Of a DNA stretch of 64,000 nt, positions 7,910 to 52,069 are shown piece after piece. A program made the translations under genes and the position numbers. How positions within the stretch are numbered: the first letter of the stretch is position 1; each line of letters starts with the position of its first letter. The DNA is from a virus. Its lineage: Duplodnaviria; Caudoviricetes. The notes under the pieces were generated by a model. That model saw only the letters and a list, made by a program, of their open reading frames with translations, had not been told where the DNA came from and searched no databases. The stretch lies in IMG/VR virus record IMGVR_UViG_3300037189_030782. One strand, given 5' to 3'.

Positions 7910-8523
7910 TGGCGACCCTTACAAGCTATGACAAAGCAGCTGCGGAAACTTGCGTGTTACTCTATGCCGATGGAATTCAGCAGGAGTTCCAGTTCCCTCC
8001 AAAAGTTACGAGCGACGACGCCAATTTGGAATGGAATAGTACCGCAGGATCTGCATATACTGGCGAAATACTTTTTCCAAAATCAATTAAAAATCGTACG
8101 TTAAAGTTAGAATGGACGTACCTACCAGGCTTCGATGGCTGGAGCATAGCGGATGTCCAAATTCAAGTTCGCAATTTCAGAGGTTTTATCTATGCTGGTG
8201 TGCTGGCGGACAAAGAAGCATCTACTTATGCATTTGCAATAGATTTCAAATACCCAGGAATTACGGGCGATAGCACGCAGACAGTGGCGATGAGTGACAT
8301 GTCAGTAAAATACTCTGACACGATGTACACTAGTCCGATTGTGTATCCGACTAAGGTAGATCTCTCATGTACGCTAAAGCTATGGTATAATGTTGCCGCT
8401 GGCAAAAAGGCTGGTGAAGATGCGAAAAGCGCAAAGCCAGACCCCAAAAATCCTAATCCTCAACCGAAGGTAGATGATGATGGTGGTTTAAATCTTAAAA
8501 ATGTAAGTTATGCGTGGTACTAA
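7909..8523 (+). CDS. Tail-tube initiator / baseplate gp48-gp54-like protein
   Basis: FQFPPKVTSDD..LEWNS...TLKLEWTY pattern; position between tape measure and gp53-like gene. Start moved to the ATG in the TAATG overlap. Confidence 0.45.
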   Translation: MATLTSYDKAAAETCVLLYADGIQQEFQFPPKVTSDDANLEWNSTAGSAYTGEILFPKSIKNRTLKLEWTYLPGFDGWSIADVQIQVRNFRGFIYAGVLADKEASTYAFAIDFKYPGITGDSTQTVAMSDMSVKYSDTMYTSPIVYPTKVDLSCTLKLWYNVAAGKKAGEDAKSAKPDPKNPNPQPKVDDDGGLNLKNVSYAWY

Positions 8524-8524
8524 T

Positions 8525-8830
8525 ATGGCAAGCAATGTTTCTAGATATAATAAAACCAAAATGCTGACCTACCAGCAGCAATCTACCTATGGCGTGTGGG
8601 TTGTGCCAATTGATTTAGCCAGTATCCCAGAAGATCGTATATCAACATACGTTGTGACCACAGGGTTAGCCGGGCGGGCCGATATTATCGCTGGCTATTT
8701 ATACGGTAACCCACAGTACGATTGGGTTTTGTACACATACAATAATGTTGTCGATACAATAAATTGGCCACCAGTTGGATTGGTTATAAAATATCCAATT
8801 GCATCTTACCTGCTACCACGGATTTCGTAA
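8525..8830 (+). CDS. Baseplate wedge gp53-like / LysM tail protein
   Basis: TYVVT..GRADIIAGYLYGNPQYDWVLYTYNN...GLVIKYP. Confidence 0.65.
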   Translation: MASNVSRYNKTKMLTYQQQSTYGVWVVPIDLASIPEDRISTYVVTTGLAGRADIIAGYLYGNPQYDWVLYTYNNVVDTINWPPVGLVIKYPIASYLLPRIS

Positions 8831-11265
8831 TGGATACGCCTGGGCTATACTACAATAAATTAATACGTGAGCGGTCTACCCCAATAGCCGAACGCTTTCC
8901 TGGTTTCTATCGTGCCATGGTTGTTGACACAAATGATCCATTAAACATGGGGCGTATTCGATTCCTATGCCCAGAAATGCACAATAGTAATATGTCGGTA
9001 GCTGATGCGCCGTTCGCTGTCCCAGCACCGGGTTTTGGTGGTCCGCGGAGCGGAATATTCAGCAACCCTTGTGTCGGGGATGGCGTTTGGATCTCGCTAG
9101 AAAAGCAACATCCATTCGGCCCAATTTGGTTTGCAGGCGCTGATCCTACTAGACAGCGTTATTACACGCGCTTCCAAGTCACCAATCCGAGCCCAGTAAG
9201 TTTGAGTTTTAATGCTGAGCCGCAGGGTCCACCTGAGGATTATGATCCCGATTATCTGCCAAAAGACGGCAGACCTATGAATTTCGGTTACACCGACCGC
9301 TATGGCACGACTGTAATCAGTAGTGCAGTGGGGTTTTTCCCGGTTACTCACACTCTTGCAGACCCTCCTGCGGAGTATGACCCGTACGCTTCTGCTGCAT
9401 ATAATAACGCAAAAGCTAAACCTGAAGTTAATTCTCCTGATAGAAAATATCATGCTGAAATTACTAAATATGGCAATATTTTTCAGTTAAGTGATGTAGG
9501 TTACTACTGGCATAAAAGCGATGATACTTCGTCATTCGGTGAATTTGTTGGCGATCCTGCTGTAGATGAGCCGTTTGAAGATCTAAGATTTAAGTATATT
9601 CAAAGACTTTTAAATGAAGGCCAAGCCAGCACTGCTTCTGGCGGCATGGAGGTGCCTGGTGCCGATCAAAGAAAGATTTCGCTCCTCTCACGCTATGGTC
9701 ATAAATGGGAACAACGTGATGTCGGATATGCTCAACCTGGACCTATGTTAAATTCTGCTAGGCAGAATGAATATGGGCAGGGCCAATTCTTGAGTTTAGA
9801 ATCGCAGAACGACATGCGGTGGCTGAAGTGGCGTAGCAAAGCAGGCAATCTTTATCAAGCTTCTGATGTGGGATACGATCCAGCTTTTAATATTAATATT
9901 AGGAAGACTAATTTAGAAGACGCAGGATATGGTTCTGAAAAAGAAGACCAATATTTTGCTAATAAAGATATGCGCATGACCAGAATCGTCACCCCAGGTG
10001 GGCTGAAATTTGTATTGGATGATCGTGGCGCAGATGTTGCTGATCCTATTGGTAATCCATGGCCGTGTAGCAATGGATTCATGTTAAAAGGCCGTAGACC
10101 AGCTGGATCGTTTGGCATAAAACCTGCATCCGGAGAGAGAGCAACTGCCGTAGCAACGATATCGGAAGGGCGAATTACCGCCATAGAGATCATTAATCCT
10201 GGCAGTATGTACGAGGACCCACCGAAGGTCAGCATTACTGATCCTAACCGCAGCGGCAAGGGGGCGGTTGCTAGAGCTGTGGTTGTTGATGGTTTTACAG
10301 TAAGCATCATCTTAATTGCTTCGGGTGCTTCATATGAAGAAGCAGTTGTCGAGATTGAACCACCGCCGTATGCTCGTGGTTTCTATGTTGAAGCGAACGA
10401 AAATGATTTGAGTAACCATCTGACTATTGGTTCGCCACTTGGATCAGTCTTTGAGCTTAATGATAGGTATCAATATAGTATCATTACTAACGGCCTAGGT
10501 AAGAAATATACCATGCCGTGGCAAGGCATACAGGAGAATGAATTCCTGCGATCGCCTACGATGGTTAATAGCCCAGAATCAACATCATATCACTTAAAGC
10601 TCGATTTACAGAACGAATATTTAAGGCTTAAAACAAGGGGCGGTCAGGGGCCAGGTCCAGAGATTGATAGGGGTGGACCAGTTAACCCTACTGGTGTGAC
10701 TGACGGTATTCAAGCTGGGCTAGAAGCTCACGACGGCCAAAAAGGTGATGGCCCTTGGGTAGAGCTGGTGGACAGCGAAGCTCGTGGGTTTTGGTTTAGT
10801 AAAAAACATAACATAGGCGTGTGGCGTGGGAAAAAAGGCAAAAGGACTTATTTTATTATTGACGATTCTAATGACACGATAAGCATCGTTAATGGAGCTC
10901 CCACTGGAACTATTGAAATATACAGCGCTGGCAATATTAACATGAGAGCTGAGAAGCGTATAAACATGTACGCAGGTCAAGGCATCAGCATGTCTACACC
11001 TCAGAGCATGGTTTTGTCAGGCGGAGCAGCTAAGATTGGAATGGAAGGAATCGGGGTGCATGTCACTGGGTTACCGTCAATCGGTCTAATAAGTGCACCG
11101 ATCATACCGCCTCCAGTACCAAATATACCTGGTAAGCTAGAGCCGACTGACCGTGGCGCTACTTATAATGGGCCGTTCGAATCATGCCCGGATGCAGAGA
11201 TTGAGCATCAGCTTGATTCGTTATTCAGTCAAGTAGACGGCTGGCTCCCTGGCTTTGCGAGGTAA
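8830..11265 (+). CDS. Baseplate central spike (T4 gp5/VgrG-like)
   Basis: N-terminal OB motif FYRAMVVDTNDPLNMGRIR...P.VGDGVWI; C-terminal beta-helix-like repeats (IEIYSAGNINMRAEKRINMYAGQGISMS). Start at the TAATG overlap. Confidence 0.75.
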   Translation: MDTPGLYYNKLIRERSTPIAERFPGFYRAMVVDTNDPLNMGRIRFLCPEMHNSNMSVADAPFAVPAPGFGGPRSGIFSNPCVGDGVWISLEKQHPFGPIWFAGADPTRQRYYTRFQVTNPSPVSLSFNAEPQGPPEDYDPDYLPKDGRPMNFGYTDRYGTTVISSAVGFFPVTHTLADPPAEYDPYASAAYNNAKAKPEVNSPDRKYHAEITKYGNIFQLSDVGYYWHKSDDTSSFGEFVGDPAVDEPFEDLRFKYIQRLLNEGQASTASGGMEVPGADQRKISLLSRYGHKWEQRDVGYAQPGPMLNSARQNEYGQGQFLSLESQNDMRWLKWRSKAGNLYQASDVGYDPAFNINIRKTNLEDAGYGSEKEDQYFANKDMRMTRIVTPGGLKFVLDDRGADVADPIGNPWPCSNGFMLKGRRPAGSFGIKPASGERATAVATISEGRITAIEIINPGSMYEDPPKVSITDPNRSGKGAVARAVVVDGFTVSIILIASGASYEEAVVEIEPPPYARGFYVEANENDLSNHLTIGSPLGSVFELNDRYQYSIITNGLGKKYTMPWQGIQENEFLRSPTMVNSPESTSYHLKLDLQNEYLRLKTRGGQGPGPEIDRGGPVNPTGVTDGIQAGLEAHDGQKGDGPWVELVDSEARGFWFSKKHNIGVWRGKKGKRTYFIIDDSNDTISIVNGAPTGTIEIYSAGNINMRAEKRINMYAGQGISMSTPQSMVLSGGAAKIGMEGIGVHVTGLPSIGLISAPIIPPPVPNIPGKLEPTDRGATYNGPFESCPDAEIEHQLDSLFSQVDGWLPGFAR

Positions 11266-11266
11266 A

Positions 11267-11986
11267 ATGATAATTAAATTCCCCACTGGATTCTATTCTC
11301 GAAGCCAGTTTACGCAGAATATCACATTTACTGTTAGTTCAGCTATGCCGTTCTTCGGAAGTAGCAATATAGCTAAGGTCCCAGAGGGCATCATTGCTCA
11401 AAACCCTAGAGCTCAACAGGGCACTATCATTTCTAGTAGGCCTCAATTCGGCCAACAAATCGCAACTGTCACAAAGGCAAATGCTGCCGCTACAGGGTCG
11501 ACCACAAAAAAATATGCGTATGGTCAAGCCATTGAACTAACGCCTCCGGTACCAGTTGCTAGCGTTGAACAGATGTACGTCTCAACTGGCGTTGAATATC
11601 TACATGACCAAAATGTGTTAGACCTGCAAAGCTTTGGTCTAACTTTTGTAGAGTCTAATTCTCTGACATTTAGTGGGCTTGAAGCGTTTGAGCAGCTGCG
11701 GGTGCAGTTAAGCCAAGCTATTGCTGCAAGGAAGGACGCTGAACTTGGCATAGGACTAGCTAAGACTAACCTTGGCGATTGCGAAAAAACGTTGGCGGCG
11801 GCGAAAGTCATTGGCAGTACACTGATAGGGCCCACGCAATATGACGAAATCATCAAGACCTTAGAAGCTAAAAAGCAACAGTTGCTGGCAGAAATCACTG
11901 CCCAAACTATCATCGCTAATGAGACTGCGCTAAATGCATCGAAGTTGCGTAATGATCTATTAACCGTAGCCACTCTGGTGAACTAA
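11267..11986 (+). CDS. Hypothetical virion-module protein with C-terminal coiled coil
   Basis: Coupled ORF between the gp5-like and gp25 genes. Confidence 0.55.
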   Translation: MIIKFPTGFYSRSQFTQNITFTVSSAMPFFGSSNIAKVPEGIIAQNPRAQQGTIISSRPQFGQQIATVTKANAAATGSTTKKYAYGQAIELTPPVPVASVEQMYVSTGVEYLHDQNVLDLQSFGLTFVESNSLTFSGLEAFEQLRVQLSQAIAARKDAELGIGLAKTNLGDCEKTLAAAKVIGSTLIGPTQYDEIIKTLEAKKQQLLAEITAQTIIANETALNASKLRNDLLTVATLVN

Positions 11987-12363
11987 TGGCAAGTGTATAT
12001 GGTTACAATCCTCCGTTCTATGACGGCAAGTATTCGATCTTGCCTAGGCAGGAAGATGAACGCCTGATAAAGAATGACATTTTGCAATTGCTGCTAACGG
12101 TGCCCGGCGAGAGGTACTACAAGCCTGCTTTTGGCGTTGGCATCAGGAATTATTTGTTTGAGCCATTAGACAACGTGCTCTTAAACAGACTCAGATTATC
12201 GATTATTGATCAGATCAGTAAGAATGAACCTAGAGTCATTAACGTCCGAGTGACACTTACGCCTGATGAAGCGCGTAATGGATTAAATATTCAGATTTTT
12301 TCGAATATGAGAAATCAGCCGAACACGTTCATAAATATCGAACAATTCTTCACGAGGGGATGA
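11986..12363 (+). CDS. Baseplate wedge protein gp25 (GPW_gp25 family)
   Basis: LIKNDILQLLLTVPGERYYKPAFGVGIRNYLFEPLD...KNEPRV. Confidence 0.9.
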   Translation: MASVYGYNPPFYDGKYSILPRQEDERLIKNDILQLLLTVPGERYYKPAFGVGIRNYLFEPLDNVLLNRLRLSIIDQISKNEPRVINVRVTLTPDEARNGLNIQIFSNMRNQPNTFINIEQFFTRG

Positions 12364-12364
12364 C

Positions 12365-14050
12365 ATGGCTGACGCAATAATCACCTTGCCTAACAATTCT
12401 GTTAACGATCAGTTGGTGAAACAGTATGGCGCAGGATCCATCTATTTTCAATTACCACCGGATCCACAACAGATAGGATTATTAACACCAGACAGCAGCT
12501 TACGTTCGCTCGATTTCAGTGGGCTAGACTTTGATACTGCGCGACAGGTGTTATTAGAATACATTAAGACGTACTTTCCAGATAAATTTAATGACTTTGT
12601 AGCTGCAAATGGAATCGTAATGATGACAGAGTTGGTGGCCAGTGCGGTCGCCAAGCTAAGCTTAAGATCTGATCTACTGGCGCAAGAAGCGACGCTAGCC
12701 ACAGCCACGCAAGAGGAATCGGTTTTAAATCATTTAAGTCTGATTAACCAAAAAATTCTACGGCAAACAGCCGCCACCGTAGATTTTGAATGTGTGGTCA
12801 GCAGAATCGCTAGCAGTGACATCAGGATAAATGCTGGAACGAGCTTTAATATCGCTGGAGCTGATGGCAAGAGATTGATTTATGAAGTTTACAAGGCGCC
12901 TGATGATTGGACCAGTCAAATTATCATACCAAGTGGTAAAAAGGGCACTATTGCATTCGGTATCGAAGGTCAATTCACGCAACCAGTAAGCTATTCTTCA
13001 GATGGGACAGCTAACCAATCATTTACTATAAGAGACAATAACATTTTATCTTATCCCGTGTTCATTAAAGTTTCTAATGGGCGCGATATCATAGATTACA
13101 CCGCAATAGATTATCCAATTCAAAAAGCCGGACCCAATGATACGGTCGCTGAGACCATATTCTATGGTGACCGTATGGTGGTAAATTTTGGTGATAATCG
13201 GACTGGCAAAATACCGGCGAGCGGAAGCAGCATTTTAATAAGGTATAGAGTTGGCGGAGGATTAAGGGGTAGGATATCCGCTAACACCATCAGTCAAACC
13301 AACCAGTATGTGTCTGACCCACCGCAATCTTTGCTGGTCAATGTGACTTTCAGTAATGTCACATCGAGTCAGGGCGGTACAGACAAAGAATCTATCGAGG
13401 ACGCAAAGCGACGAGCGCCTAAAGATTTCTCATTGCACGACAGGATCGTTACGATCAGCGATTATAGTCAATTCGCTAAGACGTTTGCTAGTCCTGTATA
13501 TGGAGCTGTGGCAAAAGCAACAGCTATCTGCAGGACTGACATAAATGCTAACTTAGTTGAAGTATATATCTTAGCATTTGGTAAGGATGCACTGGAGCTA
13601 CCAAGTTTGGGTCTTAGAGACGGCTTGAGCAGCAAGATAAGGTTATACAATAATGCTACTGATACTGTTGAGGTTCTGGGCGGCAGGTTAAAGGCGGTAG
13701 ACATCAAAGCTAGCATCATTATTAGTCGCACTGCCGATGGCACTATTGTAAGGCAGGAAGTAGAACGGACTATCAATGAATTCTTTAATTATAATAACTG
13801 GGAACTTGGTGAGGGCTTGTTTTTAAGCAACTTTATTAACACATTAGAGGGTATCGATGGCATTCAGTATGTAGACATGTATGCGCCAAATAGAAATATT
13901 CTTGCCACTAATGAAGTGTTTAACGAAGGCACCGGAACCGCCGGGCATGATCCTTATTTAGTTGGTTTAAACGAATTGATATCTCTAGGCAATAGCCAGA
14001 TTAGTTATTTCTACGAGAAAGTGAGCAATCAACCAACCGTTAGGAGTTAA
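12365..14050 (+). CDS. Baseplate wedge protein gp6 / baseplate J-like
   Basis: LDFSGLDFD...DFVAANG, FGDNRTGKIP, YRVGGG, GGTDKESIEDAKRRAP, RIVTISDY. Confidence 0.87.
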   Translation: MADAIITLPNNSVNDQLVKQYGAGSIYFQLPPDPQQIGLLTPDSSLRSLDFSGLDFDTARQVLLEYIKTYFPDKFNDFVAANGIVMMTELVASAVAKLSLRSDLLAQEATLATATQEESVLNHLSLINQKILRQTAATVDFECVVSRIASSDIRINAGTSFNIAGADGKRLIYEVYKAPDDWTSQIIIPSGKKGTIAFGIEGQFTQPVSYSSDGTANQSFTIRDNNILSYPVFIKVSNGRDIIDYTAIDYPIQKAGPNDTVAETIFYGDRMVVNFGDNRTGKIPASGSSILIRYRVGGGLRGRISANTISQTNQYVSDPPQSLLVNVTFSNVTSSQGGTDKESIEDAKRRAPKDFSLHDRIVTISDYSQFAKTFASPVYGAVAKATAICRTDINANLVEVYILAFGKDALELPSLGLRDGLSSKIRLYNNATDTVEVLGGRLKAVDIKASIIISRTADGTIVRQEVERTINEFFNYNNWELGEGLFLSNFINTLEGIDGIQYVDMYAPNRNILATNEVFNEGTGTAGHDPYLVGLNELISLGNSQISYFYEKVSNQPTVRS

Positions 14051-14051
14051 G

Positions 14052-14444
14052 ATGCATAAAATTTGGGGCACGACTGAGCAGGTCTATCATAGCCCAACGG
14101 TGTCACGTCACAGCATTTCTATTAATGCAAATCATCATTGCAGTATACATTACCACAAGTATAAGACTAATATATTTGCAATCGACTCTGGCGAGCTAGC
14201 TGTAATAAATTATGAGGGTCTAAACTCTAGTTTTGTACTCTTAACGGCTGGCGATTATTACAGTGTTCCACCATTGCTGGTACACTCATTCTACGCTATC
14301 TCGAACGTCACTGCACACGAGATCTATTGTGCTCAATTTGGACATCAAGTTGATGAGCAAGATATTGTCAGATTTAATGAGGGTGGAGTGTGTTTAGACT
14401 TGGAGCAGTTTGTTAGGAATATAAGACATCATAAGAACAGATGA
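14052..14444 (+). CDS. Cupin-domain protein
   Basis: KIWG start; CSIHYHKYKTNIF..DSG and YSVPPLLVHSF cupin metal motifs. Confidence 0.7.
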   Translation: MHKIWGTTEQVYHSPTVSRHSISINANHHCSIHYHKYKTNIFAIDSGELAVINYEGLNSSFVLLTAGDYYSVPPLLVHSFYAISNVTAHEIYCAQFGHQVDEQDIVRFNEGGVCLDLEQFVRNIRHHKNR

Positions 14445-14466
14445 CCAAATGGACGTCATCGTTTTA

Positions 14467-16902
14467 TTACGGTGTATTTGGGGCTTTATAGACTATGGCG
14501 CTGCCGCCGATCTTCTCAGCGGCCTTTTGTAAGGCGAGGTCAAGTATATGCTTGGCCTTTCCAAAAACAATGGACTTGTGCTCTGGCGGAATCATATCAC
14601 CATACTTATCTTGTAGAGTCGAGTCTATTTTCGAATTGATCATGCGGCGCATATTGCCAAGATGCTTAGTAAGGTCTGCACGATATGCTTGTTCCTTATG
14701 TGCAACTAGGCTGGGATTAGCAGCTGGTGTTAAGCGTAGCAGAAAATCATAAAAGTAATGTTGGCGTTGCTCTAACGGTAATCGTGTGTTGAATAGCTTT
14801 TGATTTAAGAAATCTCTAACAGACGGCGCCTTACCAGCCATTGCTGCCTTGATCTGCGTGGCGAAGGCTGTAGCTAGCGGCGTGTCCAAACGTTCTATGG
14901 ATTCAAGTGCATTATGTATGCCACCATGACGGATCTTGTTATCTAAAGAAACTAGATAGGGTAACAATTGTTTTACGTCCGCTCGACCTGTGGTCGACAT
15001 AGTCGCTTGTTGGGCCGCTTGTAGGGCCGCTTGTTTGGCCGCTTCTTGGCTGCCTTTTTTATATCGATAGTAGTTGTTAACGAAATAAGCTGCTGATCTT
15101 TGTCCTACTTCTAAATCGTAGATGATTGATATATAGTATAATGCGACATAGGGCTCCTCCCATTCGTCCATCTCTTTTCGCACTAATGGTTCTTCGATGG
15201 CTTGCCTAGAAGGATCGCTGCCTCGTAACACAGAGTCTGCTCTAACTACATTGGCAAGAATCGCCGCTAAAACTGGCGGTAAATTTTTAATTATTTGATT
15301 CGCAGTAGCTGTAGCGGCTGATTTACCTGTTAGATTTTTCTCGACTTCAGCCATCGCAGCTTGGACCGCAGCGCTATTGCCAAGGGCCACTTTGTAATGG
15401 GAAAATGACTTTACTGGTATGTCGGTATCAAAGCGATTACCATCCCGAGAGGCCGAGCGGTCATACATTAATCCCTTTTGTGCTTTCTTATAAGCACCAC
15501 TGGTCTCATAGGCCAGTTTTCCAATCCTGAGGCATAGCTTGTTGATTCGCTGTAGTATCAAAGAGCCATAGCTATCATCCTCATCCTCATCCTCATCCTC
15601 ATCCTCATCCTCATCCTCATCTACAATTACAATTTCTTGCTCTACAACAGCACTATGGGCATCAACAGCTTCTGGAAATTCTTCCCGCCACTGATCCAGA
15701 GTATCCTTTAGACTATCAGAATCTTTGAGCGCATGGTTTTCTAAAACAAGCTTCAATAATTCCAAGTAAACTGGATCAAGCTGAAAAGAGACGTCTTCAC
15801 CAAGAATATCAACAACACCATCCTTATCGATAATTGACTGGATAGTGGCCAAAACTTTCTTAATACTCTTGATACCGGCTCTGGCGTTTGAATTTTCTTC
15901 AACACCAACTTCGGCCATAGCTTGCTTCAAATTTTTGGAAGAAGCGATTGGCTTTGTCTTCGATTTCTTATTCTGAATCTCTTTTTCTCGTTCTTCAGTC
16001 CTGTCAATGACCTTCTTTGACTGTCGAAGCAAGGTTTCATCGTTATTACTTTCTGCAATAACTTTTTTTGTCTCAGCCCTACCTCTTTTATTTTTAATTG
16101 CGTCTAGCTGTTTGTCCAACTTTGAGGTTTTAGCCTTATGGCTTTCCTGTGCATTGACAATAGCAGCACTTAAAACTTCCGATCTCTTTTCAAGATCGTC
16201 AATCTTTAAAAGTTGGGAGGCTACGCTTCTCTTGATTTTGTCTTCACAAAGCTGAGACAACGTATCTTCGTCAATTTTTTCAAGAAGTTCATCTGTTTCA
16301 TGAAGCCATTTTGAATCTCTTTGCAGGATTTCAAGAATCTGATCGTCACTGGCTCCATACAAACGGAATTCCCGCACAGCAGCCACTTCATGACCGTCCG
16401 TCAGGTTGATGCGATTCTTATTTTCTGCCCATGCGAGCGTTGCAGCTTCAAGATCGCTTGCACAGCTAAATATCTGGCAGACAACGTATTCGTATGCAAT
16501 GTCAGCAGAAACCATTTCTCTTTCAGAAGTAGTTTCTCCAAATTTGCTTTCTCTTGGATCAATTACCATCTCTTTTTTAGAGATGAGATAGTCCAAGGCT
16601 CTATACCTACGATCACCACCAACAAGCTGGGGGTGTGCATTTTCACTATCGCCAACCCAACGGCAAATCAAGGGATTCAAAAGCGTTCTGTGCTTAATGT
16701 TTTCCCTTAGGTCCGCAGACAAAGACCTATCTGTAAGGGTTTCGGTGCCGTTCTGCGTTAAAAGTCTTGGGTTAGAAAATACATAATCCGAAGATTCTTC
16801 CACTTTGTCGGTGGTTATAATTTTTGAAAATTTAACTTTGAAGAGGGAACCGTGGAGATGTTCAATACCGTCAATTAAACCGAAAGAATTTGCCTTTTTC
16901 AT
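14467..16902 (-). CDS. ParB-like N-terminal domain protein fused through a DE repeat to an unrelated C-terminal half (probably chimeric)
   Basis: NPR...LRENIK..TLLNPLICR...LVGGDRRYRAL ParB motif in the N-terminal half; GC changes at the DEDEDE tract. Confidence 0.65.
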   Translation of the reverse strand: MKKANSFGLIDGIEHLHGSLFKVKFSKIITTDKVEESSDYVFSNPRLLTQNGTETLTDRSLSADLRENIKHRTLLNPLICRWVGDSENAHPQLVGGDRRYRALDYLISKKEMVIDPRESKFGETTSEREMVSADIAYEYVVCQIFSCASDLEAATLAWAENKNRINLTDGHEVAAVREFRLYGASDDQILEILQRDSKWLHETDELLEKIDEDTLSQLCEDKIKRSVASQLLKIDDLEKRSEVLSAAIVNAQESHKAKTSKLDKQLDAIKNKRGRAETKKVIAESNNDETLLRQSKKVIDRTEEREKEIQNKKSKTKPIASSKNLKQAMAEVGVEENSNARAGIKSIKKVLATIQSIIDKDGVVDILGEDVSFQLDPVYLELLKLVLENHALKDSDSLKDTLDQWREEFPEAVDAHSAVVEQEIVIVDEDEDEDEDEDEDEDDSYGSLILQRINKLCLRIGKLAYETSGAYKKAQKGLMYDRSASRDGNRFDTDIPVKSFSHYKVALGNSAAVQAAMAEVEKNLTGKSAATATANQIIKNLPPVLAAILANVVRADSVLRGSDPSRQAIEEPLVRKEMDEWEEPYVALYYISIIYDLEVGQRSAAYFVNNYYRYKKGSQEAAKQAALQAAQQATMSTTGRADVKQLLPYLVSLDNKIRHGGIHNALESIERLDTPLATAFATQIKAAMAGKAPSVRDFLNQKLFNTRLPLEQRQHYFYDFLLRLTPAANPSLVAHKEQAYRADLTKHLGNMRRMINSKIDSTLQDKYGDMIPPEHKSIVFGKAKHILDLALQKAAEKIGGSAIVYKAPNTP
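15575..15621. repeat. Perfect hexanucleotide microsatellite (TCATCC)7+TCATC encoding poly-(Asp-Glu) on the - strand
   Basis: Read directly; 47 bp perfect. Confidence 0.98.
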
Positions 16903-16944: not shown

Positions 16945-17580
16945 TCAAAATTCGTATCCCTTGGTTTTTGAAAAGGGTTTGCGGCAGCGTATCAAGTTGG
17001 TTGTTTCATACTCCTTTTCACCCAAACTCTCAATACCGACATTCTTTTTTCTTAACAATAATCCTTCTAGCTGTGGGTTGTCTAAAGATTCATCAAATCT
17101 AGAAGAAAAGTTGTCATAGAAAGTTTCAGCCATCCAGTGAGATGGCGATATCTCTAATGCGATTCCTGACCTACTCTTTTTTGTGGGGCTTCCACAAATT
17201 GAATTCAAAATTTCAAGTCGCTCAACTTGCGTTGGCTTAAAAAACAAGTATCTGCCAGCTTGCAACACATCAAAGAAAATTATTTCATTGGTGGCATTAA
17301 TGTCTTTGTTCATTAATTCACCATCAAGCCAATATTCTTTGTTTTGCTCAAGATTCAAGCTATCTAATAGCTCATCCCGCCTTTTGCTTTCAAACTGGAA
17401 TTTTGAAAAAGCAGTGCCGTGTCTAGTCCCAACAGTAACTTCTTTATTGCAAGAAATATGCAGAACTATTCTGCTGCCCCTAAACTTTCTTTGTGCTACC
17501 CAATCTCCAGTTTCTTCATAGTAACGAAGATCCGTAGGAAGCATTTTGCCTTTGGGTCTGGGCGGGAAAATAATCTTCAT
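16945..17580 (-). CDS. Stand-alone ATP-dependent ligase / capping-type nucleotidyltransferase domain
   Basis: Motif I AQRKFRG, WLDGEL, FFDVL, EGLLLRKK; 211 aa with no OB domain. Confidence 0.7.
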   Translation of the reverse strand: MKIIFPPRPKGKMLPTDLRYYEETGDWVAQRKFRGSRIVLHISCNKEVTVGTRHGTAFSKFQFESKRRDELLDSLNLEQNKEYWLDGELMNKDINATNEIIFFDVLQAGRYLFFKPTQVERLEILNSICGSPTKKSRSGIALEISPSHWMAETFYDNFSSRFDESLDNPQLEGLLLRKKNVGIESLGEKEYETTNLIRCRKPFSKTKGYEF

Positions 17581-19759: not shown

Positions 19760-20677
19760 ATGAATCAAAAAAGCATTAAAGAGTACATAAGAGCATTAGA
19801 TCACATTAGTAGTTTTCTGAAAACTCTTCTAGAAGAAGAGAATAAAATTGTACCTTTTCAAAAAGGTGAAAGGGACAGGCTATCAGAAATAACAGAACTA
19901 AGGATGTTGGCTAAATCAGATGTTTGGCCTGAGGCGGTGCCGCCAGAACTAATATGCAACGATATAGAAGAAGAAAAAATGTCAAGAGCCGCTGGCATTG
20001 TTCAAGACTTCATAGCAATGGATCTAAAAGAAAAATCATTCTTGGACTTTGGATGTGGAGAAGGCCACGTTCCATACGTTGCTGCCACTCTATATGAATC
20101 TAAAAATGTTGTTGGATATGATATAAAAAACCAAGACTGGGCAGCTCTTGACCCACACGATGAATTAAAATTCACGACAGAATGGGAAGATGTTAGAAGA
20201 AAAGGACCATATGATATTATTTTAATAAACGATGTGCTTGATCACTGCAAAGATCCAGCTTCTACACTACAAATGATCCAAGAAGTCAAAAAGCCTATCG
20301 ATGGGCAAGTTTTTCTAAGAATACACCCTTGGACAAGTCGCCATGGATCACATCTTTATAAACAATTAAATAAAGCCTATCTACATTTAGTTTTTACAAA
20401 AGATGAGCTGTATGCAATGGGGCTAGAACCTCCAGAAATTTTAAGAATAATAAACCCAATCAAAACATATAAAAGATTCATCAAAGATGCAGGGTTTACA
20501 ATACTCAAAGAAAGTGTGGTAACTCAACCAGTAGAGTTGTTCTTCACCCACACCCCAGAAGTACTTCGAAGAATAAAATCCAATTGGAGAAATAGCGACG
20601 AACCAAAATTAGCTTCTGGTGAGTTGTTTCCAAGAGAAATATTAGAAATACAGTTTATAGACTTTACTTTGATCTAA
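19760..20677 (+). CDS. Class I SAM-dependent methyltransferase
   Basis: FLDFGCGEG motif I, VVGYDI, YDIILINDVLDH. Confidence 0.8.
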   Translation: MNQKSIKEYIRALDHISSFLKTLLEEENKIVPFQKGERDRLSEITELRMLAKSDVWPEAVPPELICNDIEEEKMSRAAGIVQDFIAMDLKEKSFLDFGCGEGHVPYVAATLYESKNVVGYDIKNQDWAALDPHDELKFTTEWEDVRRKGPYDIILINDVLDHCKDPASTLQMIQEVKKPIDGQVFLRIHPWTSRHGSHLYKQLNKAYLHLVFTKDELYAMGLEPPEILRIINPIKTYKRFIKDAGFTILKESVVTQPVELFFTHTPEVLRRIKSNWRNSDEPKLASGELFPREILEIQFIDFTLI

Positions 20678-28259: not shown

Positions 28260-28472
28260 ATGGAGCCTTTAAGTAAAAAATTTCTTATCGAAAGAGGAGT
28301 TTGTTGTGGATGCAAATGCACAAACTGCCCCTATTGGCCTAAACATAAAAAAGGCCAGACTCTTCTATACGAAAAGAGTCTGGCCTTTTTAAATCAAGAA
28401 AATTGTTTTTCAGCTTCTATCCAAAAAGAAGATCCATCACAGTCGGGACGACCTGCTTCTTCCCAAAGATAA
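28260..28472 (+). CDS. DUF5522-like small Cys-rich protein
   Basis: FLIERGVCCGCKCTNCPY; AGGAG SD upstream of ATG 28260. Confidence 0.6.
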   Translation: MEPLSKKFLIERGVCCGCKCTNCPYWPKHKKGQTLLYEKSLAFLNQENCFSASIQKEDPSQSGRPASSQR

Positions 28473-28660
28473 TAAGCAAGTTCTCTAATTTTTTCTTCTT
28501 GGTTCTTTTCACAAATATTTTCTTCAATATTTCTAATTCCACCACAAGATGTTGGCATTTCTAAAGAAACAGTCTGATTATTCATTGTTGAACTTTCCTT
28601 GTTGTTATTAAAAGACCATTGGAAGGGATTCAGTTTACCAAAAAAACTTTCCATTGTCAA
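28394..28660 (-). CDS. DUF2934-domain protein
   Basis: EEKIRELAYYLWEEAGRPDCDGSSFWIEAEKQF. Confidence 0.8.
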   Translation of the reverse strand: MTMESFFGKLNPFQWSFNNNKESSTMNNQTVSLEMPTSCGGIRNIEENICEKNQEEKIRELAYYLWEEAGRPDCDGSSFWIEAEKQFS

Positions 28661-29692: not shown

Positions 29693-29753
29693 GTTTGTGC
29701 CTCCAAAATAATTGTACCACAACAAAACAGTTTGTAAAGTGTAGTTGATTTTT

Positions 29754-30151: not shown

Positions 30152-30188
30152 ATAAACCGGGAGAGTTGGTTGTCCTCTCCCGGTTTAT
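30152..30188 (-). terminator. Strong hairpin / probable terminator downstream of the 68-aa gene
   Basis: Perfect 14-bp stem ataaaccgggagag / ctctcccggtttat; U-tract is short. Confidence 0.6.
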
Positions 30189-30200: not shown

Positions 30201-30407
30201 TTACTCTTTTAAGACAATTCTTTCTCCATTGGAACCGCCTAATGCAGCACCTCCTTTCAAGAAAGACAAAGTCATATTTATTTCCCAATCAGCAGAGCCT
30301 TGCCTTTTCATAGAAGCAATTAGCTCTTCTTTGGTTACCTCTACAATCTTAGGGTTCTTATTCCTAAGATCGTTGAGTCCTTGTAAAACAGCAGCACTAA
30401 AAAACAT
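30201..30407 (-). CDS. Hypothetical 68-aa protein downstream of the SAM riboswitch
   Basis: ORF lies between the structured leader and the terminator; GAGAG SD-like tract. Confidence 0.65.
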   Translation of the reverse strand: MFFSAAVLQGLNDLRNKNPKIVEVTKEELIASMKRQGSADWEINMTLSFLKGGAALGGSNGERIVLKE

Positions 30408-30460
30408 GGTTACTCTCTCTCTGTTAAAGGGAGATCAAGAAGGCGGATAATCCGCTTTTT

Positions 30461-30555
30461 CACAGGAAACACTCCTGTGCGTATCCCAGCAAAGATAGCT
30501 GGTGGCACCGTGGCTTTTGCTCGGTTGCCAGTGCCTTTCGGCACCTTCTTAATAC
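30461..30555 (-). ncRNA. SAM riboswitch, SAM-I/IV-type architecture
   Basis: GUAUU(P1)-AAGAAG-GUGCC GAAA GGCAC(P2)-UGGCAACC..GGUGCCA(P3)-CCAGC..GCUGG(P4)-GAUAC(P1')-CACAGGA..UCCUGUG(P5). Confidence 0.8.
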
Positions 30556-30569
30556 TTCCTACAAAAATT

Positions 30570-30597
30570 AGTATAGCACTAGGTTTTGACTTGTAAA
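30570..30597 (-). promoter_or_regulatory. Sigma70-type promoter driving the riboswitch transcript
   Basis: TTTACA-16 nt-TATACT with an extended TG motif. Confidence 0.65.
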
Positions 30598-31606: not shown

Positions 31607-31870
31607 TTATCTGTGCCATCTTGCTATTTCTTTATCCAAATCACCTAACTTTTCTAAAGCAGCAACAATTTGTTTCACCCCAGAAGAACCCAAGTTCTCT
31701 ATTGAAGAAATCTGTTTCTCATTTAAAGAAACTAAGTCCTTTATATAAATTAAGTTGTGCTTAGAATCTTCCAAGGCATTAATTACCCTTAAAGGAAGAC
31801 CAAGATACTCTAATTCAGCTATAGGGATGTTTTCTTTAATCGCCTTTTTTGTCAAATCGTTGTTTATCAC
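31607..31870 (-). CDS. Stand-alone RNA polymerase alpha-subunit C-terminal domain homologue
   Basis: IAELEYLGLPLRVINALE...IKDLV...ISSIENLG..GVKQI matches the alpha-CTD HhH pattern. Confidence 0.8.
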   Translation of the reverse strand: MINNDLTKKAIKENIPIAELEYLGLPLRVINALEDSKHNLIYIKDLVSLNEKQISSIENLGSSGVKQIVAALEKLGDLDKEIARWHR

Positions 31871-32773: not shown

Positions 32774-33919
32774 CTATCTATCACCTTTAAGACAGTTGTT
32801 TATGTCTACACGGGCATAATTTGGTGTGCCTAACCCTGTGAGTCCATTGTAGAGGAAAGTTACTTTCTTTCCAATCCATTTTTTCTTTTTATTCAAGAAT
32901 TCAGTGGCTTGTTCAAAAGTACCCTTAAAAGTAGCATCAAAGATTTTACCATTCCAATTCAACGTAATAATTTTGCCAGTTCCTCGCCAATTACCGGCAC
33001 CTTCCGTTATTTCAACGATCTCACCTTCGTCATCATCCTCAGGCTTAACCTTTAGCAAATGCTTGCTTCTTTTGTTTTCATATTTCATGTTCTTGTGACG
33101 AAGTATTCCACCCTCTTGTCCATCATCTATCAAAGATTGGTAAGCCTCGTCTAGATTGATTTGACTAAGAATATTGATGTCTGTGACATGAACCGCATAA
33201 TCATACTCGCCAATAACTTGATTATCAATCCATTCTTTTCTAGACTTGTATGGTTCATTCTGGCTCATGGGATTGGTTTTGAGGCCAAAACCATAACCGT
33301 CATAGATATAATATCTAACCAGCTCTTCACTACGCTCTAAATCTTCTTTAGAAATATGAACTGTTTTTCGGATTAACTTGCTTATCTCGTTAAGTTGCTG
33401 TCGCAGTTCGTTATTGAACAATTCGCCGTCAAGAACAGCATTGGGATGCTTCTTAAAAAATGGCTTTAGAGAATCCTCAACATGTGGGACACTTAGGTAC
33501 TTTTCACCCTTGCGTGTAAAAAGACCATCTTTGGTAGCCACACAACGCATCCCATTGAATTTACATTGAAGAAGCCACTCTCCACCTGAAAGGTCGATTT
33601 TGTGAGCATAGTCTTTATATAGCTTGGCAAGCATTGGCTCCACGTAAGAAGTAGATCCAACGTCTCCAATGTCATCAAAATAACCCGTTTTTCTCTGCTT
33701 CTTGTATCTGGAGTCGATTTCCGCACTAGCCTGCTCAACAGCAGTCGTAGCGTTTTTCTTGCCAAAGTTCTTGGCCTCAGTAATCGTCCACTCAGATGTT
33801 ACTCGTTCACCGTCTAAAAGTCCAGAAACTGTTCTATGCTTGTTGTTTTCCTGTTCCATGTACCAAACACGGACATTACCAATTGTATCTTTTGTATACA
33901 GAACTGGGTAGGTTTTCAT
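32774..33919 (-). CDS. lig: ATP-dependent DNA ligase
   Basis: EPMLA, QCKFNGMR, LDGELF, YYIYD, EGGILR, LLKVKP; OB domain EG.G..G. Confidence 0.92.
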   Translation of the reverse strand: MKTYPVLYTKDTIGNVRVWYMEQENNKHRTVSGLLDGERVTSEWTITEAKNFGKKNATTAVEQASAEIDSRYKKQRKTGYFDDIGDVGSTSYVEPMLAKLYKDYAHKIDLSGGEWLLQCKFNGMRCVATKDGLFTRKGEKYLSVPHVEDSLKPFFKKHPNAVLDGELFNNELRQQLNEISKLIRKTVHISKEDLERSEELVRYYIYDGYGFGLKTNPMSQNEPYKSRKEWIDNQVIGEYDYAVHVTDINILSQINLDEAYQSLIDDGQEGGILRHKNMKYENKRSKHLLKVKPEDDDEGEIVEITEGAGNWRGTGKIITLNWNGKIFDATFKGTFEQATEFLNKKKKWIGKKVTFLYNGLTGLGTPNYARVDINNCLKGDR

Positions 33920-42066: not shown

Positions 42067-42771
42067 TTACCCTTCTAGCTTTTCCAAAATAGAAGCTATT
42101 AAAGGATGTCTAACTATTGAACTAGATTTAAAGTAAACGACTCCAACTCCATTTAAAGTCTCTAGCTTTTTGACCACATGCATTAATCCTTGTTGCCTCT
42201 CAGGAATATCACTTTGGTTGGGATCCCCAGTAATAATTACCTTACTGTTCTTGCCAAATCTGGTTATAAAGAGTTTAATTTGTGATAAAGTTGCATTTTG
42301 CGCCTCATCAAATATACAAATAGAATTGTGAAAAGTTCTTCCTCTGAGGTAAGCCAGTGGTGCAACTTCAATTGATTTATTTATAATTTCTCTTTGTGGA
42401 CCATCTTTTCCCAAACACCTGTCTATACAGTCGTACATAGGCATCATGTAAGGACTTACTTTTTCCTCAAAAGAACCAGGAAGATAACCCAAAGATTCCC
42501 CTGCTTCTACTATCGGCCTAGTCAAAATTATTCTTTCTTTTTTCTTAGCAAGAACCTCACTTATACTGAATGCACAGGCCAGTTGAGTCTTGCCAACCCC
42601 AGCTGGGCCCAATAAAAAAAGTACATCGTATTGATCAAACATACTCCAAGCAAGTTTTTGTGCTTGGTTAAAAAATTCAAAATGGAAAGTCTGTGGCTGC
42701 TTTTTTAGAGGCTGCTCTTGCTTAACCTCAGTTCTTTGTTTAGATCTATTGTGTCTTTGCTTTTTTCTCAT
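42067..42771 (-). CDS. phoH: PhoH-like ATPase
   Basis: GPAGVGKT, LTRPIVEAGESLGYLPG, PLAYLRGRTF, DEAQN, TGDPNQSD, VRHPLI. Confidence 0.95.
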   Translation of the reverse strand: MRKKQRHNRSKQRTEVKQEQPLKKQPQTFHFEFFNQAQKLAWSMFDQYDVLFLLGPAGVGKTQLACAFSISEVLAKKKERIILTRPIVEAGESLGYLPGSFEEKVSPYMMPMYDCIDRCLGKDGPQREIINKSIEVAPLAYLRGRTFHNSICIFDEAQNATLSQIKLFITRFGKNSKVIITGDPNQSDIPERQQGLMHVVKKLETLNGVGVVYFKSSSIVRHPLIASILEKLEG

Positions 42772-47188: not shown

Positions 47189-48208
47189 TTACTGTTGAGT
47201 TTCCAAATTATTAAGCCAATTTTGCCTTTGTGGTGTAACATTTTTTTGTTCAAAAGCAGAAAGTTCCTTTAAAGTAGACTTATACTCATCGTCGGTCTGT
47301 CTTGGTATTTCGAGCTTTAAAGACACTATCATATCACCTATATGAGCTTTAGTTAATACACCTTTTCCCTTAACCTTAAATTTTGTTTGCGGCTGACATC
47401 CTTGAGGAATTTTAACAATTAATCTTTCTTTAAATATAGAGGGTACAAGCAGTTCACAACCAAGTGCAAGCTGGGTATATGAAACTGGAACCTCTATATG
47501 TAAATTAGATCCTTCTCTTTTAAATAAAGGATCATCTTTAACCTTAACTATAATTATTAAATCGCCTTGCCTGCCACCCCTAACAGACTCTTCTCCATCA
47601 CCAGCAAAACTAAGCTGAGCATTGTTTTGTATGCCTGATGGTATTTCTACTTCTATATCCTTTTCTTCATAAGAAGAAAAACCTGTTGCTGCACACTTGT
47701 CACATTTTTTTAATTTTATCTTGCCTAAGCCAGCACAATTTGGACAAGACTGTTTTATAGTGAACGGAACACTAGGAGCTTGTATAAAACCATTACCAGA
47801 GCATTGCTCGCAAATCAAAAAATCTGTGCAACCTTGTCCATCGCAATCGTCGCACCTTTTTCTTTTTTTTGCTTTTACAAATTTCTTACAACCACTGATA
47901 GATTCTAATAAATCAATCTCTAACCTTACAATAACGTTTTTGCCCTTGAATGTACTAGAGCCAAACAAATCAGCAGAAAAGTCAAAATCAAAAGGATTAT
48001 GCTTAGGACTTGACCTTTCTGTGTTTGTTCTCCTAGATTGACCTGTCAAGATTTCATAGGCATGTTGAATCTCTTTAAATCTCTTAGCCGACTCAATATC
48101 ATCAGGATTTAAATCAGGATGATACTTCTTAACTAAGTCTCTATAAGCTTTTTTTATATCATCAAGGGTAGAATTAGATTCTACTCCTAATGCATTATAG
48201 GGATTCAT
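47189..48208 (-). CDS. dnaJ: Chaperone DnaJ (type I)
   Basis: J-domain with HPD, four CxxCxGxG-type repeats, C-terminal GDL..V.V...F.R.G..L domain. Confidence 0.93.
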   Translation of the reverse strand: MNPYNALGVESNSTLDDIKKAYRDLVKKYHPDLNPDDIESAKRFKEIQHAYEILTGQSRRTNTERSSPKHNPFDFDFSADLFGSSTFKGKNVIVRLEIDLLESISGCKKFVKAKKRKRCDDCDGQGCTDFLICEQCSGNGFIQAPSVPFTIKQSCPNCAGLGKIKLKKCDKCAATGFSSYEEKDIEVEIPSGIQNNAQLSFAGDGEESVRGGRQGDLIIIVKVKDDPLFKREGSNLHIEVPVSYTQLALGCELLVPSIFKERLIVKIPQGCQPQTKFKVKGKGVLTKAHIGDMIVSLKLEIPRQTDDEYKSTLKELSAFEQKNVTPQRQNWLNNLETQQ

Positions 48209-48590
48209 TATAGCTGCCTGATTGATCAACTTCCTCGACTGGGTCACTTTCTTCGATTAATACACTCTTTATAGCGTGTGGCTCCATAAAAAATCGATCT
48301 CTATGAGTATCGTCATAGTTTGGAGCTAGAACACCACCACCAGAGATGAGCACTCTATCACCTAAGTTAAAACCCCAAGCATCTTGATTAAAGGATGGGC
48401 CAACGCCTCTAATATAACCCTGCAAAGGTACCTTTAGGTCTGTGTTCTCTGCTAATGTTAAAGTTGTTCCCATCAATTCTTGTGCAGTTAAAATCTCCAC
48501 TAGAACCTGTGAACCCGCTGGCTTTACAGCTGAAATCTTTGGAATAGGGGTAAGCATTGGTGAACCATCTGAGTTTAATATCTTATTCAT
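48195..48590 (-). CDS. groES: GroES/Cpn10-like co-chaperonin
   Basis: VKPAGSQVLVE...G..RGVGP...GDRVL...HAIKSVL. Confidence 0.7.
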   Translation of the reverse strand: MNKILNSDGSPMLTPIPKISAVKPAGSQVLVEILTAQELMGTTLTLAENTDLKVPLQGYIRGVGPSFNQDAWGFNLGDRVLISGGGVLAPNYDDTHRDRFFMEPHAIKSVLIEESDPVEEVDQSGSYNESL

Positions 48591-50539: not shown

Positions 50540-51542
50540 AAAAGTTCAAAAAATAACATTTTTCGTCTTTTTCACCGAGCAATACGGCATGAATGAGTTT
50601 GTTTCTAATTAAGCTACGGTCGAAAGCATTCAATGCTTCATGCTTTGATTTGTAAGTTTGGAAAATATTTTCACAGTCCAAGAAACAATAGTTCTCATCA
50701 CTTTGTTGTATTATCTGTATACTTGGCACAACCACACAAAAATTGTCGAATATGGGTTTTTCGTTTGCTTGTGGAAATTTTTCTAAAATCTTTAATGCCT
50801 TCTTTGTTCTTTTAGAAGCTATATCAAAAAAAGCACGAAGAGGGTAAACTCTTGGCTCATAAAGAACCTCACCGTACGGAGCAATATGCCCTACAATCAA
50901 GTTTTCTGATATGTGAAACCCCATTATCTTAGCTAAAATAGTTGAAGTTGAAAGTATACTGATAGGGTGAAAACCGTAATACAACTTGTTTGTCTCTTCT
51001 ATAAGACCAATAGAATTCTTAACTTCATCTGCTAGAAACATGCACCCTATTTCTTCGTATCTTTTTGCCTTCTTATTCGCCAGCTTAATATCATTTTTGT
51101 AAGACTCATCAAACCTCATAAATTTATCAAAAGAATCAGGAGATGACTCCCAATTACTTTGTAGATTTTTGCAGAAAGAATATAGATCAATATTTTGAAC
51201 ATTTTTTAAAGATCTTATTTCTTCTCTAAGTGATTTGTTTTTTATAAGCCTTGTTTTAAAAGAAGAAAAAGAAGTTACTTTAGAAATTGAAGAAATTATC
51301 TTCTCTTCTGAGAAATTTCCTTCTATCAAAGAATAAAAAATCTCTAAAATATCAGGATGAGTCTCATCTACTTTACCTTCAAATACAGTATCAGTAAATT
51401 CTTTAAGTAATTGTCTTACTTTTTTTAGCGACAATGAGGCCAATATATCTCTGCGTCCAGAAATGTATATTCCTTTGTCAGACTTACTCAAAAGAGAAAA
51501 ACAAACTTCTTGAGTTTTTGGAACACTACTTTTGAACTTCAT
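50532..51542 (-). CDS. Hypothetical protein (336 aa)
   Basis: Coupled ORF between infC and the ALDH gene. Confidence 0.65.
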   Translation of the reverse strand: MKFKSSVPKTQEVCFSLLSKSDKGIYISGRRDILASLSLKKVRQLLKEFTDTVFEGKVDETHPDILEIFYSLIEGNFSEEKIISSISKVTSFSSFKTRLIKNKSLREEIRSLKNVQNIDLYSFCKNLQSNWESSPDSFDKFMRFDESYKNDIKLANKKAKRYEEIGCMFLADEVKNSIGLIEETNKLYYGFHPISILSTSTILAKIMGFHISENLIVGHIAPYGEVLYEPRVYPLRAFFDIASKRTKKALKILEKFPQANEKPIFDNFCVVVPSIQIIQQSDENYCFLDCENIFQTYKSKHEALNAFDRSLIRNKLIHAVLLGEKDEKCYFLNFFD

Positions 51543-52069
51543 GATGATACTTTAGGACTTAAACAACAAATTATTTTATTTCCATCAAGCTTTGGAGGCC
51601 TATCTAAAAGAGAAACCTCAGATAAACTTGAAATAATATGATTTATAACTGTAAAACCTTTTTCTTTATGTATCAGTTCTCTTTGACCCTTAAACATCAG
51701 ATTAAACTGAACTTTCATCCTGTCTTCCAAAAAATCCTTGGCTTGTGAAATTTTAACGGCTATATCGTTGTCAGCTATAGTAGGCCTTAATCTTAATTCC
51801 TTTATTTGAACCTTAGATTCTTTTTGTTTTTTAGCCTGCTCTTTTTTCTTAAGTTGTTGTTCGTATTTAAAGCGTCCATAATCAATTATTTTACAAACAG
51901 GTGGCTTTGCTGCTGGGGCGACTTCAACCAAGTCGAGCCCAGCTTCTTCGGCAATCCTTCTTGCCTTATCTGTATTCATTACACCAAGTTGTTTGTCATC
52001 CATGACAACACGAACTTGAAAAGATTTAATCTTCCAATTAATTCTAAAATCTTCTGGATCTATCGACAT
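51539..52069 (-). CDS. infC: Translation initiation factor IF-3
   Basis: IN..I...VRV...QLGVM....A...A....LDLVEVAP..KPPVCKIIDYGRFKYE...KELRLRP.I..ND. Confidence 0.96.
   Translation of the reverse strand: MSIDPEDFRINWKIKSFQVRVVMDDKQLGVMNTDKARRIAEEAGLDLVEVAPAAKPPVCKIIDYGRFKYEQQLKKKEQAKKQKESKVQIKELRLRPTIADNDIAVKISQAKDFLEDRMKVQFNLMFKGQRELIHKEKGFTVINHIISSLSEVSLLDRPPKLDGNKIICCLSPKVSS

Follow-up and report, generated by a model that had tools for sequence, protein, structure and literature searches.

What is an RNA with the features of a bacterial SAM sensor doing in the genome of a phage, in front of a gene for a small protein without a known family? The question was raised by a reading of the sequence alone, which had described a SAM-I/IV-type riboswitch in a complete transcription unit on the minus strand of a 64,000-nt stretch of viral DNA (hereafter the window); the letters that it quoted are present there on that strand. 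The window carries phage genes (baseplate wedge proteins, primase, DNA polymerase and DNA ligase), and the record carrying the 68-aa protein encoded behind the RNA is a 381,443-bp contig. Both observations support a phage setting, and the carrier is a huge phage (~381 kb) of freshwater lakes. Habitat-labelled public runs that match parts of the window are lake-water or freshwater metagenomes, each with a small and incompletely checked share, and no RNA runs were listed among the public runs matching parts of the window. A BLAST search of GenBank phages with 3 kb around the site gave no match. The nearest virus record (G001) is a 75-kb fragment, rated 21% complete, which contains neither the aptamer nor similar DNA.

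Riboswitches already reported from phages comprise c-di-GMP-I riboswitches in C. difficile prophages and glutamine riboswitches in cyanophages, pelagiphages and phage Melnitz (PMC5473149, PMC9004378). The sequence-only reading had called such reports rare, which agrees with a 2017 survey of riboswitch distribution that found only the c-di-GMP-I and glutamine types in phages and concluded that phage use is rare (PMC5473149); glutamine riboswitches in marine myophages were a later addition (PMC9004378). A search of open-access papers and preprints turned up no phage for which a SAM-I-clan riboswitch had been reported. Like the reported cases, the RNA described here is a metabolite aptamer of a bacterial family standing before phage genes other than the usual metabolic ones, but it belongs to a different ligand class.

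The locus is organized as a compact unit on the minus strand, in which the promoter is followed by a 116-nt match to the Rfam model RF01725 (30560-30445), a 38-nt linker, the 68-aa ORF (30407-30201) and a hairpin (30186-30154). Its main features are:

30570..30597, minus strand: sigma70-like promoter, with TTTACA at 30597-30592, a 16-nt spacer ending in TGC, and TATACT at 30575-30570
30445..30560, minus strand: SAM-I/IV-class aptamer, matching RF01725 with 52.2 bits against a gathering score of 41.1
30201..30407, minus strand: 68-aa ORF, the gene directly behind the switch in the window
30154..30186, minus strand: 12-bp hairpin formed by AAACCGGGAGAG, a 9-nt loop and CUCUCCCGGUUU, then AUAAAA

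The promoter hexamers match the consensus at 10 of 12 positions and are accompanied by an extended -10 TG. Promoter matches of such quality are not rare by themselves (3 found in the region versus 3.7 expected). The arrangement TTTACA-N16-TGnTAnAnT recurs at equal distance from the aptamer in four of the five relatives described below (L001, L008, L009 and L013), with differing spacer sequences. Transcription likely starts near position 30562, 6-7 nt before helix P1, and the hairpin at 30154-30186 is the probable end of the transcription unit. A 12-bp hairpin is also found in L015, with the base of the stem changed on both sides; its absence from the terminator-scan list is explained by the short T-run. 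A second promoter-like site (TTTACA, 16 nt, TG, TACAAT; 29711-29738, minus strand) precedes the next small conserved gene (~29692-29441), a gene that also comes after the 68-aa gene in relatives.

Membership of the RNA in the SAM-I/IV family is confirmed. The RF01725 match has an E value of 1.2e-5 over the 64-kb window, spans the whole model and is the sole Rfam match in the window; at a permissive threshold nothing else in the region scored comparably, and the SAM-I/IV model beat the others in competition within the SAM-I clan. SAM-I/IV riboswitches were described by Weinberg et al. 2010 (PMC2864571), and structures of the env87 aptamer are available (PDB 4L81, 4OQU). Aligned to the family model, the phage aptamer consists of the following elements:

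30555-30551 with 30485-30481, minus strand: aptamer helix P1
30550-30547, minus strand: J1/2, AAGA, part of the aptamer core
30546-30530, minus strand: aptamer helix P2 with a GAAA loop
30529-30504, minus strand: aptamer helix P3 with an AA bulge at 30526-30525 and an unpaired U at 30507
30486..30502, minus strand: extra junction hairpin (CCAGC, loop UAUCUUU, GCUGG) between P3 and the P1 3' strand, the P4 position in SAM-I
30479-30461, minus strand: 7-bp 3' hairpin directly 3' of P1
30455..30460, minus strand: A-rich 3' tail AAAAAG, with a candidate pseudoknot between AAAG (30458-30455) and CUUU (30494-30491) of the junction-hairpin loop

The core of the SAM-I type, comprising the U-A/A-U pairs of P1, J1/2 AAGA and the P3 AA bulge opposite an unpaired U, had been recognized in the sequence-only reading; it aligns to RF01725 and is invariant in six of six variants (the window and five relatives). 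In the solved env87 aptamer the P1 uridine U4 touches the sulfonium, and G8 and A25 are reported to recognize SAM directly (PMC8525861); by analogy, G8 would be the J1/2 G of the phage RNA and A25 its P3 bulge A. P2 comprises an A-U pair plus five further pairs with one bulged G and a GAAA or GCAA loop, and has neither an internal loop nor a kink-turn, as the earlier reading had likewise described together with the 3' hairpin. A P2 of this plain kind is the trait that separates SAM-I/IV from SAM-I and SAM-IV (PMC2864571). With SAM-I (S-box, RF00162) the phage aptamer has in common the core that binds the ligand and a four-way junction in which a hairpin occupies the position of P4, but it carries an extra hairpin 3' of P1 and lacks both the kink-turn and PK-1 (the P2 loop with J3/4); neither could form with a P2 that is a GNRA hairpin of 6 bp, and J3/4 consists of one A. 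The SAM-IV layout (RF00634), with P2a/P2b and PK-1, a PK-2 from P3 and no junction P4 (PMC6890682), does not fit either, as the phage RNA has an undivided P2 and a junction hairpin, and its P3 loop cannot pair with the tail. The likeness to SAM-I/IV itself extends over the full-length match, P1, J1/2 AAGA, the P3 AA bulge with its unpaired U, the plain P2, and the hairpin directly 3' of P1 followed by an A-rich tail. What sets the RNA apart is its phage carrier and its targets: it does not precede genes of methionine or SAM metabolism or transport, and the downstream genes encode small proteins to which neither Pfam nor PHROG assigns a family.

Relatives of the locus were collected from the contigs of nine homologues of the 68-aa protein, from contigs of homologues of the upstream gene described below, and from one metagenome pattern scan. 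Five further distinct aptamer variants were found on related phage contigs from lake metagenomes (L001, L008, L009, L013 and L179), several of them represented by identical copies (L001 = L002 = L003 = L015; L009 = L182 = L183; L179 = L180 = L181). RF01725 scores exceed the gathering score in L013 (53.7 bits), L008 (45.6) and L009 (44.7) and fall just below it in L001/L015 (39.4), so that the covariance-model check suggested by the sequence-only reading came out in favour of the family in the window and, outright or narrowly short of the cut-off, in these relatives; L179 was scored only by our own covariance model, R1, made from five of the six variants. R1 gives 121 bits both for the window and for the sixth variant, which was left out of the model, within a range of 121-144 for the phage set. 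Across the six variants 99.5% of paired cells are kept, versus 30-46% in controls in which pairing partners were slid by one to three columns. Three pairs changed on both sides, one from G-C to A-U in P3 and two in the 3' hairpin (P5). Mean column identity among the variants is 82%, and in pairwise comparison the aptamer is 87-94% identical versus 79-84% for the DNA of the 68-aa gene. A strain contig differs from the window at 31 of 481 nt and at none of the 105 nt of aptamer, for which we calculate a chance of ~1 in 1000 at the mean rate of that contig. Since the variants are close relatives, they offer good evidence of constraint and thin covariation (the three pairs). Conservation together with the compensatory changes supports a functional structured RNA.

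The 68-aa gene also occurs without the aptamer, in at least two related lineages (L004/L005 and L006/L007). Searches with DNA patterns, exact or gapped, that were derived from the aptamer sequence turned up no genuine copy in IMG/VR, nor among the matches listed for genome contigs. A pattern of the SAM-I/IV consensus gave 20 matches in IMG/VR, none of the 16 that were scanned with Rfam reaching the gathering score and none of the 20 matching R1. Pattern matches L012, L014 and L196 were rejected; they are GC-rich, contain no aptamer by Rfam or R1 and look like chance matches in coding sequence.

Five consecutive hairpins after a promoter could also bind CsrA or act as a trans-acting riboregulator, and one AGGA does occur in the 3' hairpin of the window. 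That AGGA sits within the stem, however, and is AAGG in four of the five relatives; the hairpin loops read GAAA, AAAA, UAUCUUU, GUGUU and UUA, so that no conserved loop contains GGA, which led us to reject the sponge reading. The RNA moreover matches a curated riboswitch over its full length and runs directly into a translated gene, and we consider a role of this kind extremely improbable.

Outside the core, the phage RNA differs from the solved SAM-I/IV aptamer in lacking PK-2 and in having the 17-nt junction hairpin inserted. The sequence-only reading had quoted CCAGC-UAUCUUU-GCUGG without naming it; while its account of the core stands, this element is to be read as the extra junction hairpin, which the Rfam model handles as an insertion. 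All six variants share an identical stem; in the loop, five of seven positions (A-U-C-U and one more U) do not vary once L013 is set aside. PK-2 is formed by the P3 loop with the 3' tail (PMC6890682, PMC8525861), and regulation by the solved SAM-I/IV aptamer is reported to depend on it (PMC8525861). The P3 loop of the window is AAAA and faces the tail AAAAAG, and no pairing between loop and tail is possible, in line with the earlier remark that a canonical PK-2 is not obvious. The P3 apex varies among relatives, with long paired hairpins of differing sequence in L001, L008 and L009 and a short extension in L013 and L179. The loop of the junction hairpin could instead pair with the 3' tail. Such a replacement pseudoknot finds a compensatory change in L013 (loop CUAU with tail AUAG), the sole one for this pairing, whereas L179 loses one pair (loop CUUG versus AAAG). 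If the hairpin stacks on P1 like P4 of SAM-I, the two-nucleotide linker would also look short. The replacement pseudoknot may exist, judging from these few sequences, but we hold it as a tentative proposal and lean against it.

Bacterial members of the family place this architecture in context. In a sample searched with RF01725, seven of 151 Bacteroidota scored above the cut-off, as did none of 151 Planctomycetota, two of which gave matches below it. Bacterial RNAs L186, L191 and L193 (Bacteroidota) and L195 (Planctomycetota) also have the junction hairpin, and where their P3 apices are readable these have a short loop; the L186-type members lack the canonical PK-2, which is present in L187 (AACAACA with UGUUGUU) and L188 (AAAACC with GGUUUU). 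The shared junction hairpin and short P3 loop mark the phage architecture as a natural subtype within the family. The bacterial junction-hairpin members differ from the phage set in their R1 scores (24-33 bits versus 121-144) and in their A-rich junction-hairpin loops, which are not complementary to their own tails. None of the sampled 151 Bacteroidota and 151 Planctomycetota yielded a close match to the phage variant, and hence no host is assigned.

Downstream of the aptamer lie three elements that could connect it to the gene:

30443..30455, minus strand: small hairpin GCGGA-UUA-UCCGC, listed as terminator-like together with the following CUUCUUGAUC
30428..30445, minus strand: switching strand CGCCUUCUUGAUCUCCCU, complementary to the 5' leader, the P1 5' strand, J1/2 and the first P2 bases (30560-30542)
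30413..30422, minus strand: purine-rich Shine-Dalgarno (SD) region AGAGAGAGAG, 5 nt before the AUG at 30407-30405

The sequence-only reading had proposed that UUAAGAAG and CUUCUUGA pair in a helix that excludes the aptamer. This pairing is real in the sense that the alternative helix is the free-energy minimum in six of six leaders, lying 6-11 kcal/mol below the fold in which P1 is enforced (J1/2 and tail blocked), and it is conserved in all variants. The RNAalifold consensus includes the alternative helix, its AGAAG/CUUCU pairs are invariant (6/6), and the motif CCUUCU right after the small hairpin, complementary to AGAAGG of J1/2 and P2, is likewise kept in all six. When 5' and 3' strands were swapped between variants, the distal part of this helix gave no sign of covariation. 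In the window the helix extends to 14 pairs and covers UCUCCCU, the 3' part of the switching strand that constitutes the anti-SD. When P1 is enforced in the window, UCUCCCU instead pairs with the AGAGAGAG SD region (UCUC...GAGA), and the predicted unpaired probability of the SD falls from 0.57-0.77 in the free fold to 0.03-0.52 with the aptamer enforced. Masking of the SD, as had been proposed, is therefore found in the P1-enforced fold of the window and fails to generalize: for the five relatives, both predicted states place the SD (AAAGG) in a local hairpin with CCUUU, and its accessibility shows no consistent difference between them, so that the translational mechanism is clearly predicted only for the window.

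The bacterial SAM-I/IV leaders retrieved for comparison contain a strand complementary to the P1 5' strand and J1/2 at the equivalent place. In L193 and L195 this is CUCCUGGUG before the SD, and in L186 and L191 it lies within a strong terminator at the end of the leader, a feature that the phage RNAs do not share. The competing strand common to phage and bacterial leaders indicates that the switching logic is that of the family. The terminators of L186 and L191 also raise the possibility that the same aptamer acts on transcription in the phage, either because the small hairpin of the SAM-bound form and a U-rich stretch terminate the transcript or because the freed C-rich strand recruits Rho, with the alternative helix preventing this when SAM is absent. 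The terminator-like listing of the window hairpin and its tail would agree with such control, and the masking of the relatives' SD in both predicted states leaves room for another level of regulation. The position of the small hairpin is indeed occupied in all six variants, with differing loops, but its stem has only five pairs in the window (four to six in relatives), the tail in relatives is U-poor, there is no U-run in L001, L008, L009 or L179 (CUUCUAAAUG), and the hairpin forms in both predicted states. We thus regard transcriptional control as unlikely. For translational control taken as a mechanism on its own, the predicted folds leave our expectation about evenly divided, and what weight remains after these two goes to mixed control or some other mode.

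Considering the elements together, the RNA of the window is quite probably a working riboswitch of the SAM-I/IV class. Family membership follows from the covariance model, the conservation, the compensatory pairs and the conserved alternative helix; SAM binding, the direction of switching and the translational level of control are what we infer from the sequence. A sigma70-type promoter would start an mRNA whose first ~115 nt could fold into a SAM-binding core (P1, J1/2 AAGA, GNRA-capped P2 and P3) flanked by the junction hairpin and the 3' hairpin. Without SAM, the pyrimidine strand CCUUCUUGAUCUCCCU would pair with the 5' leader, the P1 5' strand and J1/2, and this alternative helix would break the binding pocket and at the same time occupy the anti-SD, leaving the SD free and the gene translated. 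With SAM, P1 and J1/2 would be locked in the aptamer and the pyrimidine strand released to pair with the purine-rich SD, so that translation of the 68-aa gene would fall. The most likely action is thus that of a translational OFF switch at high SAM, which the models predict clearly only for the window.

The fold could alternatively be a relic derived from a riboswitch, kept for mRNA stability, processing or protein binding after SAM sensing was lost, or it could respond to a ligand close to SAM, for example SAH. In favour of this, nothing ties the downstream genes to methionine or SAM metabolism, PK-2 in its canonical form is absent, and riboswitch subclasses with a changed ligand do exist, as in the purine class (PMC6847200). 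Yet the core positions strongly weighted by the family model are all kept and invariant in the six variants, the aptamer is more conserved than coding DNA, and the conserved strand competes exactly with P1 and J1/2, as expected of a working switch. A relic or a change of ligand appears quite improbable to us on these grounds, and a working SAM switch remains the preferred reading.

The genes behind the switch offer a further view of its role. The 68-aa protein has nine homologues at 72-93% identity with 30 invariant columns, and a profile search added ~15 more distant proteins of ~70 aa; among these more distant homologues (P0015) the gene stands directly behind another gene, with no aptamer on their short contigs. 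Peptide patterns found no relatives of the 68-aa protein in IMG/VR. In L001, L009, L013 and L179 the aptamer precedes a gene for a protein of 93-110 aa with conserved cysteines and a C-terminal DEEWAE..RKECEDIL..GRG motif, and the 68-aa gene was seen after it in L001, L009 and L179, while the stretch of L013 that was read ends inside the first gene. The positions of this gene are:

L001, 2712-2996: 93-110-aa gene, first gene behind the switch
L009, 365-697: 93-110-aa gene, first gene behind the switch
L179, 4001-4282: 93-110-aa gene, first gene behind the switch
L013, from 2723 downwards, minus strand: 93-110-aa gene, first gene behind the switch

The window and L008 lack the first gene, so that their leader runs straight into the 68-aa gene, and in L006 only the last nine codons of the first gene are left. 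This distribution suggests that the ancestral arrangement was a switch governing a two-gene operon, with the conserved-cysteine protein of 93-110 aa first and the 68-aa protein second, and that the window and L008 lost the first gene. The proposal that the riboswitch controls a non-metabolic gene thus holds insofar as neither the 68-aa nor the 93-110-aa protein has a Pfam or PHROG family; because the window lost the first gene, the 68-aa gene would not have been the sole ancestral output. L010 carries two genes of the 93-110-aa type in tandem.

An AlphaFold2 (AF2) model of the 68-aa protein (pLDDT 73) has the order helix-strand-helix-helix-strand, with a two-residue bridge at 55-56 that was not counted as a strand by the tool. 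The predicted topology resembles a small winged-helix domain. Fold searches of the PDB by Foldseek, of AFDB clusters, by VIA-align (wide) and of the ESM Atlas yielded nothing significant, with a top Z of 3.6 and faint RecX-repeat and winged-helix rows, and Atlas features gave only leads below 0.9, to winged-helix domains. As no fold match was significant, the winged-helix likeness is only a lead.

A genuine, conserved member of the SAM-I/IV family is thus confirmed, and both its carrier and the genes behind it are unusual. Because SAM donates the methyl groups for DNA modification and serves several restriction and defence systems as a cofactor, SAM-responsive phage genes provide a handle on how the expression of large phages is timed and conditioned. 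The tie to restriction-modification or BREX defences suggested by the sequence-only reading is speculative. That several lineages retain a SAM-class switch, more tightly constrained than the gene next to it, is an argument for SAM being measured by the phage in the course of infection. More speculatively, a clade of huge freshwater phages may sense the state of the infected cell through this riboswitch, low SAM turning on a two-gene regulatory or counter-defence module, with a replacement pseudoknot in place of PK-2; taken in all its parts, we think this scenario somewhat unlikely. If true, low SAM could reflect starvation, SAM-consuming enzymes of phage or host, or a SAM-destroying defence, and the module, made up of the conserved-cysteine 93-110-aa protein and the faintly winged-helix-like 68-aa protein, would serve regulation or counter-defence and not metabolism. 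The two small proteins in any case gain a testable physiological context, as they would be made at low SAM. In structural terms, the set of variants would be a natural case of a SAM-I-clan core that functions in the absence of both known peripheral pseudoknots, or with a new one in their place.

Several observations concern the wider genome. Further genes in the window encode glycosyltransferases, PhoH (42067-42771, minus strand), a full-length DnaJ (47189-48247, minus strand) and an IF3 homologue with both domains (51539-52069, minus strand). An 87-aa stand-alone protein ~1 kb upstream of the riboswitch unit (31607-31870, minus strand) matches the RNA polymerase alpha C-terminal domain (PF03118, E = 1.2e-8), and an 88-aa ORF (28394-28660, minus strand) has a C-terminal DUF2934 domain (E = 2.6e-11). 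A class I SAM-dependent methyltransferase (Methyltransf_23, E = 1e-14) is encoded ~10 kb from the riboswitch (19760-20677, plus strand), a position noted here without implying a link. The same applies to a SET-domain protein (PF00856) located 1-2 kb upstream of the riboswitch operon in L179 (1200-1922) and L182 (2331-3053), a homologue of which was not found in the window by tblastn. Related phage contigs with the 68-aa gene and without the aptamer carry tRNA genes (L004, 1656-1731; L005, 1651-1726), and there are none in the 64-kb window; a tRNA is also present on L012 (2564-2637), a chance pattern match for which a phage origin is not established. The window encodes a full ATP-dependent DNA ligase (32774-33919, minus strand; PHROG 114, E = 6e-53) and, in a second and shorter ORF (16945-17580, minus strand), a weak match to a ligase adenylation domain; in relatives, a pair of ligase-like genes is found immediately downstream of the riboswitch operon. 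G+C content is 0.43-0.46 in approximately the first 16000 nt of the window (~1-16000) versus 0.32-0.37 in 16000-64000, and near 16 kb the GC skew changes sign and gene orientation flips.
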